Positions 6,836 to 7,512 of a stretch of 24,179 bases of DNA are shown here, piece by piece. The stretch's first letter is position 1. Each line of letters opens with the position of its first letter. The notes beneath the pieces are model-generated. The model was given only the letters and a program-made list of their open reading frames with translations, did no database searches and was not told the origin of the DNA. The DNA lies in the IMG/VR virus record IMGVR_UViG_2711768048_000001; one strand, given 5' to 3'. The DNA is from a virus. Taxonomy: Duplodnaviria; Heunggongvirae; Uroviricota; Caudoviricetes. The translations under genes and the position numbers were made by a program.

Positions 6836-6840
6836 TCCGA

Positions 6841-6870
6841 AAATAAAAAAGCCACCTATTAGAAGGTGGC
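6841..6870 (-). terminator. Rho-independent terminator downstream of the moron gene
   Basis: On the minus strand: GCCACC-ttctaata-GGTGGC hairpin (plus 6851..6870) followed by TTTTTTATTT (plus 6841..6850). Confidence 0.7.
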
Positions 6871-6890
6871 CTTGTAATGAATTTTATTAA

Positions 6891-7421
6891 TTAGCGGGTC
6901 AGAAACAACGAATCTTTATACTTTTGCTGTTGTTCATTTAAATACTTAGCTGTTTCATCGCTGGCAAATGGAAATATTACCGTATTTTTAGGCATGGTAA
7001 TTTCTTTTTTGTCCAGCGTCAGAGTAAACATAGGAACATACTGAGCAGAGTAACGCACCGCAGAAACGAGCTCTAGTTTAGACTCTTCAATAACACTTAA
7101 ATTATCCAGGCTAACTTTCTCTTCATCTTTTTTCTTTGACGCATTTAAAGTTTTTATTACTTTATTTAATTTCTCCTGAAAATCCTCCTTAAAGTTTTCA
7201 GGATTGCCGTCGACAACAAGAATCTGTTCACCCTGATTATCTGGAAAAATAATCTTTGCACTTATCAATTTATTTTCTTTATAAACATCACCAAGTTTTA
7301 TGGCTCCTCCAGATAACTGAATAATATGTTCATCTTTAAAGGAGATGTTGCCAGAGATTATGAGAGATGAAAAAATAGCCGCTGCTCCAAGAATTACACT
7401 TGCTGTGATATAGCCTTTCAT
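6891..7421 (-). CDS. Moron: AT-rich 176-aa protein with N-terminal signal peptide or membrane anchor, function unknown
   Basis: Clear ORF starting MKGYITASVILGAAAIFSSLIISGN…, Lys/Glu-rich with no Cys. Visibly AT-rich compared with the flanking tail genes; has its own promoter and terminator. Confidence 0.7.
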   Translation of the reverse strand: MKGYITASVILGAAAIFSSLIISGNISFKDEHIIQLSGGAIKLGDVYKENKLISAKIIFPDNQGEQILVVDGNPENFKEDFQEKLNKVIKTLNASKKKDEEKVSLDNLSVIEESKLELVSAVRYSAQYVPMFTLTLDKKEITMPKNTVIFPFASDETAKYLNEQQQKYKDSLFLTR

Positions 7422-7456
7422 TTTTCGCCTATTAACATTTTTCTAAATGTGCATTA

Positions 7457-7484
7457 ATTCTATCACTCTATTTATGACTTACAA
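7457..7484 (-). promoter_or_regulatory. Candidate sigma70 promoter for the moron (-35 TTGTAA, 16-bp spacer, -10 TAGAAT)
   Basis: On the minus strand: TTGTAA (plus 7479..7484), 16 bp, TAGAAT (plus 7457..7462), about 35 bp upstream of the ATG at 7421. Confidence 0.45.
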
Positions 7485-7512
7485 CCAGCAATACATGTGA
7501 GGGGAATCCTGG

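Follow-up and report, generated by a model that had tools for sequence, protein, structure and literature searches.

An AT-rich accessory gene for a predicted envelope protein in a variable cargo slot of a Mu/SfV-type prophage tail operon

The contractile-tail operon of the prophage in IMG/VR record IMGVR_UViG_2711768048_000001 raises a simple question: what is a small, AT-rich gene doing between the genes for the tail tape-measure protein and the DNA-circularisation protein? This gene, which we call the cargo gene, lies in region 6836-7512 of the 24,179-nucleotide stretch that was analysed (the window). An initial annotation had described it as a self-contained moron of ∼620 bp, equipped with its own promoter and terminator and encoding a secreted or membrane-anchored protein that matches no family. 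Here, we report that the cargo gene is an accessory gene in a cargo slot of the tail operon, that its product is predicted to be anchored in the inner membrane and to face the periplasm, and that superinfection exclusion is a possible function, which we favour tentatively over several alternatives.

A variable cargo slot in the tail operon

Tail genes in the window follow the order sheath, tube, chaperone, tape measure, N, P, gp45 and gp46 of a Mu/SfV-type contractile tail, and elsewhere the prophage has HK97-type head genes and a lambdoid Q and lysis region. Region 6836-7512 contains a single convincing gene, the cargo gene (Table 1), and matches of the flanking genes to PF10145 and PF07157 confirm its position between the tape-measure and DNA-circularisation genes. 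Its open reading frame (ORF) is the most AT-rich stretch of the entire 24-kb window, with a GC content of 0.345 compared with a mean of 0.538 (standard deviation 0.044) for all other 531-bp segments (z = -4.4) and with 0.51-0.59 overall in the neighbouring genes. GC content at third codon positions (GC3) is 0.305, versus 0.56-0.66 in six neighbouring structural genes. The initial annotation had called the insert AT-rich and had suggested comparing its base composition and codon usage with those of the flanks; the comparison reveals a clear difference in GC content and GC3.

In SfV, SfI and SfII, the stretch matched by both flanks measures 331 bp as opposed to 951 bp in the window, a difference of exactly 620 bp that agrees with the insert size first given, and in the SfII record only a terminator is annotated between the two genes. 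Examination of 5,426 complete Escherichia coli genomes revealed 1,083 that match at least one flank and 175 (∼3%) that contain the whole cassette. We sampled 60 evenly spaced E. coli hits and found both flanks in 44. The junction was empty in 27 of these and held the cargo gene in 10, a gene for a signal-peptide protein in 3, one for a bPH_1 protein in 2 and one for an OB-fold membrane protein in the remaining 2. The signal-peptide protein (164-170 aa) has a cleavable-looking signal peptide, is also found in phage SKA5 and belongs to phrog_8976 (unknown function), and the bPH_1 protein is 125 aa long. The OB-fold protein (148 aa; WP_000734912.1) is tRNA_anti-like, carries an N-terminal transmembrane helix, is encoded on the opposite strand and matches phrog_8545, a family named 'superinfection exclusion Sie-like' (E 1.5e-49). 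Every cargo type at the junction has a GC content of 31-38%, and three of the four types, the cargo gene included, encode predicted envelope proteins. The comparison across SfV-like prophages therefore confirms the initial suggestion of a variable cargo site, the junction being either empty or occupied by any one of four unrelated genes in the sampled E. coli. In one strain, EC21Z-014 (NZ_CP101274.1, 871466..873288), the matched stretch measures 1,823 bp instead of 951 bp and includes an IS5 transposase gene and two fragments annotated as 'hypothetical protein'; the cassette there appears to be interrupted by IS5.

Given that SfV, SfI and SfII as well as ∼60% of the sampled E. coli junctions lack the cargo gene, it does not encode a structural tail protein. 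Instead, it is an accessory gene, or moron, and the SfV/Mu-type tail operon provides the cargo slot in which it resides. A moron in the sense of Juhala and Hendrix is defined by patchy presence, deviant base composition, its own promoter, its own terminator and expression from the prophage (definition quoted in PMC3594210). The cassette is missing from collinear relatives, and its base composition is unlike that of the surrounding genes. As an element, it is an ordinary moron that carries a gene of an undescribed family, and its product is very probably an accessory envelope protein at a cargo hotspot.

The slot is also used outside E. coli. Relatives of the cargo protein are encoded at the tape-measure/DNA_circ_N junction in Leclercia (53% identity; loci L001-L005), Edwardsiella (41%; L019) and Lonsdalea (33%; L021), where two further small ORFs follow, as well as on a metagenome contig (34%; L014). 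The fact that prophages of Leclercia, Edwardsiella and Lonsdalea have relatives of only 33-53% identity at this very junction shows that the gene has long been associated with the slot and did not enter it by a recent one-off insertion. Two more relatives (∼30% identity; L022 and L023) are located in another contractile-tail set, marked by PhiTE tube, TAC_15, Dit_like, Pam3_gp18 and E217_gp41 genes, where they lie between a hub-side gene and a spike/Apex gene. In one of these loci (L023:5679-7097), an 81-aa ORF and genes for DUF551 and KilA-N/P63C proteins separate the family member from the spike gene, which amounts to a multi-gene cargo island in an E217/Pam3-type baseplate operon. Each of the eight phage contexts has the gene in the orientation of the tail genes, with a low GC content (0.29-0.41) irrespective of that of the backbone.

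Other members lie outside tail operons. Three are found on short contigs adjoining housekeeping genes, and a distant member is positioned between a gene for an S24 (CI/LexA-like) repressor and genes with HNH_2/CTD11, MC7/MC6 and DUF2326 domains (L016:184-5219), all of which are domains described from biological-conflict systems. This last contig is AT-rich throughout (0.34 GC), and the member is not compositionally foreign to it. Replacement by unrelated genes in sister prophages and occurrence outside tail operons are both at odds with a structural tail protein. Judged from these contexts, the cargo gene is an accessory gene that travels, strongly favouring slots within myovirus tail operons, and does not belong to any one tail type. 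Two records that carry the family are filed as non-mobilisable plasmids, CP088862.1 (35,406 bp) and NZ_CP081716.1 (37,667 bp; protein 66.5% identical); these circular 35-37 kb records match SfV-like phage genomes in size and are probably excised or circularised phage genomes.

The slot has a further constant feature, a rho-independent terminator. In the window, its stem runs from 6873 to 6848 and is followed by a T-tract (folding free energy -15.6 kcal/mol, z = -4.2 relative to shuffled sequence). Empty junctions consist of ∼60 bp with a rho-independent terminator (GTCCCACTTCGGTGGGC plus T-tract) that abuts the ribosome-binding site (RBS) of the DNA-circularisation gene, equivalents in cargo-less junctions being located at L013:440-500 and, in SfII, at L008:1654-1692. 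The terminator stem is identical between the bPH cargo and an empty junction. Co-oriented cargos in the window and in other genera have a terminator at the same place with a common TTTTTTAT..GGAG continuation, and in seven of the eight phage contexts a terminator is found just 5' of the resuming tail genes. The terminator thus appears to be a fixed element of the backbone or the slot. Since empty junctions have one too and the bPH cargo uses the same stem as they do, it is no evidence for an imported promoter-gene-terminator unit. In cargo-less SfV-like phages, a terminator in the middle of the late operon may serve to attenuate the baseplate genes, or may be a mark or scar of the cargo slot.

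Table 1. Coordinates of features in the window (1-based positions in the 24,179-nucleotide stretch)
Feature	Position	Strand	Details
Cargo gene	6891..7421	-	176-aa ORF; WP_000679479.1 (RefSeq); PHROG 5485; without Pfam/NCBIfam/PADLOC family
Shine-Dalgarno-like AGG	7428..7430	-	6 nt 5' of ATG
N-terminal hydrophobic helix, residues 4-24	7350..7412	-	Predicted signal-anchor, N-in/C-out; Kyte-Doolittle 19-residue maximum 2.11
Candidate sigma-70 promoter TTGTAA-16-TAGAAT with TG extension	7457..7484	-	9/12 consensus match
Rho-independent terminator	6838..6873	-	10-bp stem, 6-nt loop, T-tract; abuts RBS of DNA-circularisation gene
Upstream flank: tail tape-measure protein, 610 aa	7513..9345	-	PF10145, E 1e-26
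Downstream flank: DNA-circularisation protein (Mu N/gp43-like)	5501..6829	-	PF07157, E 4e-34
Late antiterminator Q	22182..22871	-	PF06323, E 1e-94
lambda Bor homologue, lipoprotein (MKKMLFSAALAMLITGC...)	20309..20602	+	PF06291, E 6e-31

AGG, AAGG or AGGA motifs 5' of the start codon are also found in the Leclercia and metagenome homologues. For the DNA-circularisation gene, the mechanical ORF opens at GTG 6835, although ATG 6829 is the likelier start because it is located five bases after GGAG and fits the MTWKD start annotated in related records. A scan of the window against Rfam returned no RNA families.

A predicted membrane-anchored protein with a periplasmic domain

The translation of the cargo gene agrees with the initial description of a Lys/Glu-rich protein without Cys. 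Sequence searches of Pfam (at E <= 10), NCBIfam, PADLOC and the PDB gave no match, either with the single protein or with a profile of 63 family members, and searches of the literature and its supplements for the accession and the PHROG identifier found nothing. The statement that the protein matches no family consequently holds for Pfam, NCBIfam and PADLOC, but not for the PHROG database, in which it has a full-length match to PHROG 5485 (E 3.8e-108, 176/176 positions); distant relatives likewise match PHROG 5485 or PHROG 34391, and both are families of unknown function. A match to phrog_15137, labelled 'endonuclease', was rejected as weak (E 0.014).

An exhaustive profile search retrieved 77 clusters at 50% identity, nearly all of them 170-195 aa in length and with a common layout, from Enterobacterales, including Edwardsiella, Mangrovibacter, Citrobacter and Lonsdalea, and from Aeromonas caviae and Pseudomonas chengduensis. 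Apart from the E. coli copies, a word-indexed search returned only relatives that are 52-59% identical across 80% or more of the query; two of these relatives come from Leclercia or Lelliottia records. When the cargo protein and two distant relatives were compared by tblastn with 50,697 isolate phage genomes (INPHARED), no homologue was detected.

Alignment of the 63 family members reveals, in addition to the N-terminal hydrophobic helix, three conserved elements: the motif N-I-x4-G-x-V-[KR]-L-G-x-V-Y-x-E immediately after this helix, a hairpin with the pattern V-x-Y-x-S-E-x-x-P-x-F-x-L-x-L, and a C-terminal helix that ends in F/Y-[IL]-x-K. The same alignment was used as input for an AlphaFold2 model of the cargo protein, which has a predicted local distance difference test score (pLDDT) of 90.8 and consists of helices at residues 3-22, 74-93 and 149-171 and strands at residues 32-36, 39-44, 46-58, 67-72, 114-126 and 132-143. 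The model describes a compact alpha/beta domain of ∼150 residues that has no solved structural relative. The remote-homology and structure searches suggested in the initial annotation gave one significant match, which is among predicted viral structures, to a protein of 144 aa that is labelled 'lipoprotein' and comes from the lytic Pseudomonas phage ventosus (Foldseek E 1e-6, template-modelling score 0.55/0.65). This protein, CNR37_00111 (MG018930; L025:1995-2429, minus strand), is hypothetical according to GenBank and is encoded in the early/middle region of the 97-kb lytic phage. Its lipobox, LLTGC, leads directly into TKDTIIHT..VNVGEV, which corresponds to the first motif of the family, and its C-terminus is FSYLK. 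Alignment of the family with the ventosus protein by hhalign gave a probability of 54% (E 1.3e-4), and CNR37_00111 is a probable lipid-anchored distant relative.

The hydrophobic signal or anchor at the N-terminus, also part of the initial description, is clearly recognizable (Table 1), and a corresponding segment is found in 62 of the 63 family members. Net charge is higher in the N-terminal than in the C-terminal flank of this segment in 60 of the 63, which favours an N-in/C-out orientation. A cleaved signal peptide, for which the AAA at residues 13-15 was considered, is less likely, given that family members do not conserve small residues at this position and that the hydrophobic run extends nine residues further. 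The cargo protein is without the Cys of a lipobox, which occurs only in the ventosus relative (LLTGC); a lipid anchor there implies that the same domain is set on the periplasmic side of a membrane. We therefore predict, from sequence and family comparison, that the cargo protein is a signal-anchored, bitopic inner-membrane protein that faces the periplasm. Combined with the model, the predicted arrangement has only a few N-terminal residues in the cytoplasm, a single membrane-spanning helix (residues ∼3-24) and a periplasmic domain of ∼150 residues.

Selection and retention in decayed prophages

Variation within E. coli was assessed in 80 IMG/VR prophage contigs, 75 copies of the cargo gene being used for the ratio of non-synonymous to synonymous polymorphism (pN/pS) and 76 for the promoter and for gene disruption. 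The cargo gene has 14 synonymous and 9 non-synonymous variant sites, and the resulting pN/pS of 0.17, compared with 0.13-0.22 for tail genes, shows that the protein is under purifying selection. Divergence from the window is 0.34% in the cassette versus 1.9-2.2% in three flanking genes. The low synonymous diversity may reflect recent spread of the cassette, or recombination of the flanks with a larger cargo-less pool. Between genera, identity is 33-53% for the cargo protein versus 65-89% for sheath, tube and baseplate protein P. The tape-measure protein is much more mosaic than its neighbours: one Leclercia prophage has a version with 76% identity, whereas values fall to 24-36% in the other Leclercia prophage and in those of Edwardsiella and Lonsdalea, even though sheath and tube are 66-89% identical.

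The cargo ORF is intact in two SfV-like prophages that decayed independently, and the cassette of each is almost identical to that of the window. In cM2a (L018, at thrW), Q and the tape-measure gene are truncated and the head genes are lost. In CB209 (L027, at argW), stop codons interrupt the sheath, N and YmfQ genes, one baseplate gene is truncated and another frameshifted, and the annotation shows no Q gene upstream of the lysis genes. Compared with the window, the CB209 cassette has 4 differences in 683 bp, versus 69 in 3,162 bp of the flanks. Although these are two cases only, an intact ORF in such prophages fits a benefit to the host that is independent of late transcription. Strain MB10 has an intact prophage that carries the cargo gene together with gtr serotype-conversion genes, and one of the IMG/VR copies (L099) has a frameshift in the cargo gene.

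Possible functions of the cargo protein

Superinfection exclusion at the envelope is a possible function of the cargo protein, and the one that we favour, if tentatively. We do so because the protein has the architecture of exclusion proteins, because Sie-like and secreted proteins use the same slot, because one family member lies beside repressor and conflict genes, because the ventosus relative is a lipoprotein, and because HK97 gp15 provides a precedent. By association, the faster divergence of the cargo protein compared with tail proteins also suggests an exclusion role. In a lysogen, the cargo gene would be transcribed from a weak extended -10 promoter of its own, and the resident terminator would keep this transcript out of the baseplate genes. 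Antitermination by Q proteins lets late transcription pass terminators, and because the prophage encodes Q, late transcription would be expected to pass the terminator at the junction; during lytic growth, Q-modified polymerase may thus read through both the promoter region and the terminator. The periplasmic domain would hinder genome delivery by incoming phages after adsorption, and its target could be something released by the incoming tail into the periplasm or membrane, or else a host factor on which this released component depends.

The proposal draws on several known systems. HK97 gp15 is a moron product of the inner membrane that is expressed from the prophage and causes a tail-dependent block of DNA entry (Cumby et al. 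2012; reviewed in PMC3594210). Like the cargo gene, gp15 is an AT-biased single-gene insert in a tail operon that adjoins the tape-measure gene, and its product is a small single-pass inner-membrane protein, as predicted here. However, gp15 is located upstream of the tape-measure gene, belongs to a siphovirus, is much smaller and is a member of the YebO family, whereas the cargo protein has a predicted periplasmic alpha/beta domain of ∼150 aa and is set in a myovirus tail operon; no sequence relation to YebO or gp15 was detected (no Pfam family at E <= 10). In addition, the OB-fold protein of phrog_8545 shares the slot in sister E. coli prophages, the AT-rich composition and the N-terminal transmembrane helix with the cargo protein, but the two proteins are not related in sequence or fold, and their genes lie on opposite strands. 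Exclusion proteins with a membrane or lipid anchor include those of the lactococcal Sie2009 type, Ltp of Streptococcus thermophilus phage TP-J34, Llp of T5, Sp of T4 and Sim of P1. All of these are phage-encoded and, as predicted for the cargo protein, combine an N-terminal membrane or lipid anchor with a small extracytoplasmic domain; they act after adsorption. Both anchor types also occur in the cargo family, with a transmembrane helix here and a lipobox in ventosus. Ltp of TP-J34 is also covered in PMC3952083. Homology of the cargo protein to any described exclusion family was not found, and by analogy it looks like an exclusion protein but cannot be called one.

Several other observations weigh against exclusion. 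The promoter on which expression in the lysogen would depend is one of two promoter-like sites in 1.4 kb, a number at chance level given 2.9 +/- 1.7 in shuffled sequence. Upstream of six homologues (L001, L014, L019, L021, L022 and L023), the same scan found no sense-strand site, and a comparable, marginal one is present in only one (L005) of the seven related loci. Only position and strand speak for TTGTAA-16-TAGAAT as a promoter, which is suggestive, and although the stretch from -35 to -10 is unchanged in the 76 E. coli copies, the chance of this is ∼0.1 given six variable sites in the 91-nt spacer. Independent transcription of the cargo gene is plausible on this evidence. Promoter and terminator are both located where the initial annotation had placed them, and the terminator is strong, but the number of promoter sites does not exceed that in shuffles. 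The description of the cassette as self-contained is not supported, because the terminator also occurs in cargo-less junctions and the promoter is at chance level and is not conserved in relatives. Preferential retention of the gene was also considered and rejected: one disruption was seen in 76 copies compared with five to six in the longer flanks, and per-base rates are not clearly different. Furthermore, the 'Sie-like' label of the OB-fold cargo is an annotation, and in two cassette-bearing chromosome records (H39 and H41) a second place matches the query, which includes flanking tail-gene DNA. Finally, the gene points in the direction of the late tail genes in each of the eight phage contexts, which means that the protein is certainly made late, and this fits a role in the phage's own cycle as well.

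A bolder version of the exclusion proposal, which we regard as quite unlikely, is that the family constitutes a new class of membrane-tethered periplasmic inhibitors aimed at contractile-tail genome delivery. During passage through the periplasm, the tape-measure protein, the spike or the DNA-circularisation protein would be captured by such an inhibitor. This would explain the presence of the gene in two unrelated myovirus tail/baseplate sets, the retention of the slot down to 33% identity and the lipoprotein cousin in a lytic phage.

Among the alternatives to exclusion, the cargo gene could be a host-fitness or virulence moron whose envelope protein alters a trait of the lysogen that has nothing to do with phages, for example serum or stress resistance, adhesion or envelope homeostasis, as is the case for lambda Bor and Lom. 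We consider this unlikely. Its general layout is like that of known late-operon fitness morons, and the persistence of the gene in decayed prophages and the purifying selection acting on it are compatible with any host benefit. Lambda Bor and Lom are also envelope proteins encoded in or beside late operons and are expressed from the prophage; Bor, however, is a lipoprotein of the outer membrane, whereas Lom forms a beta-barrel; the two have host-interaction roles, and neither is related in sequence to the cargo protein. The prophage itself contains a Bor homologue, a classical and already known moron, which is oriented opposite to the late genes between those for Rz spanin (20634..21095) and an HNH endonuclease (19433..19882) and lies in a second low-GC patch (0.40). 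An animal-host virulence function is countered by family members in bacteria of soil, water and plants (Lonsdalea, Pseudomonas chengduensis and Aeromonas) and in a lytic Pseudomonas phage, and host fitness more generally by the fact that the family is almost always phage-linked and that the slot is also home to a Sie-like protein.

It is rather unlikely that the protein is a dispensable late helper of the phage's own lytic cycle that tunes lysis, blocks injection of progeny genomes into the dying cell or debris, or assists maturation of the tail or baseplate at the membrane. In keeping with this idea, the gene is always co-oriented and embedded in two unrelated contractile-tail sets (Mu/SfV and E217/Pam3 types), the slot is kept by relatives down to 33% identity, and a sense promoter went undetected in most relatives, so that the gene may be expressed mainly by late transcription. 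Nevertheless, the gene is missing from the viable phages SfV, SfI and SfII and from ∼60% of the sampled junctions, it is intact in prophages that are unable to make tails, and some members are located outside structural operons. Holin, endolysin and Rz spanin genes are already present in the prophage, and a spanin, holin or other lysis role was rejected on this basis and because the cargo protein is globular and not a coiled coil.

Another form of anti-phage defence appears improbable. Single-gene membrane defences are known, and abortive infection triggered by a membrane-bound effector or sensor, for instance by depolarisation upon sensing an incoming tail protein, would be consistent with a single-pass membrane protein in a prophage cargo hotspot and with the distant member within a cluster of conflict genes. 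However, PADLOC returned no matches, the predicted cytoplasmic part of 2-3 residues leaves no domain to sense or signal, and toxic or pore-forming features are not evident. Lastly, a tail structural or assembly protein, as the cross-genus conservation of a site between tape-measure and baseplate genes might suggest, or a spurious ORF is very improbable, the former given the patchy distribution, the replacement by other genes at the same site, the transmembrane anchor and the non-tail contexts, and the latter given 77 clusters, a pN/pS of 0.17, a confident fold and a conserved RBS.

The PHROG 5485 family is an undescribed one that has no Pfam model and no solved relative, whereas the moron layout itself is already known. 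If the cargo protein had no effect on phages, its gene would be one more uncharacterised moron. If, on the other hand, superinfection exclusion is its function, the family would represent a structurally new and easily cloned single-gene exclusion system, and the tape-measure/DNA-circularisation junction of SfV-like prophages, which accommodates four or more further unrelated cargos, would be a compact hotspot from which candidate envelope-acting factors could be harvested. For phage therapy and typing, prophage exclusion genes help to account for strain-level resistance beyond that expected from receptor typing.

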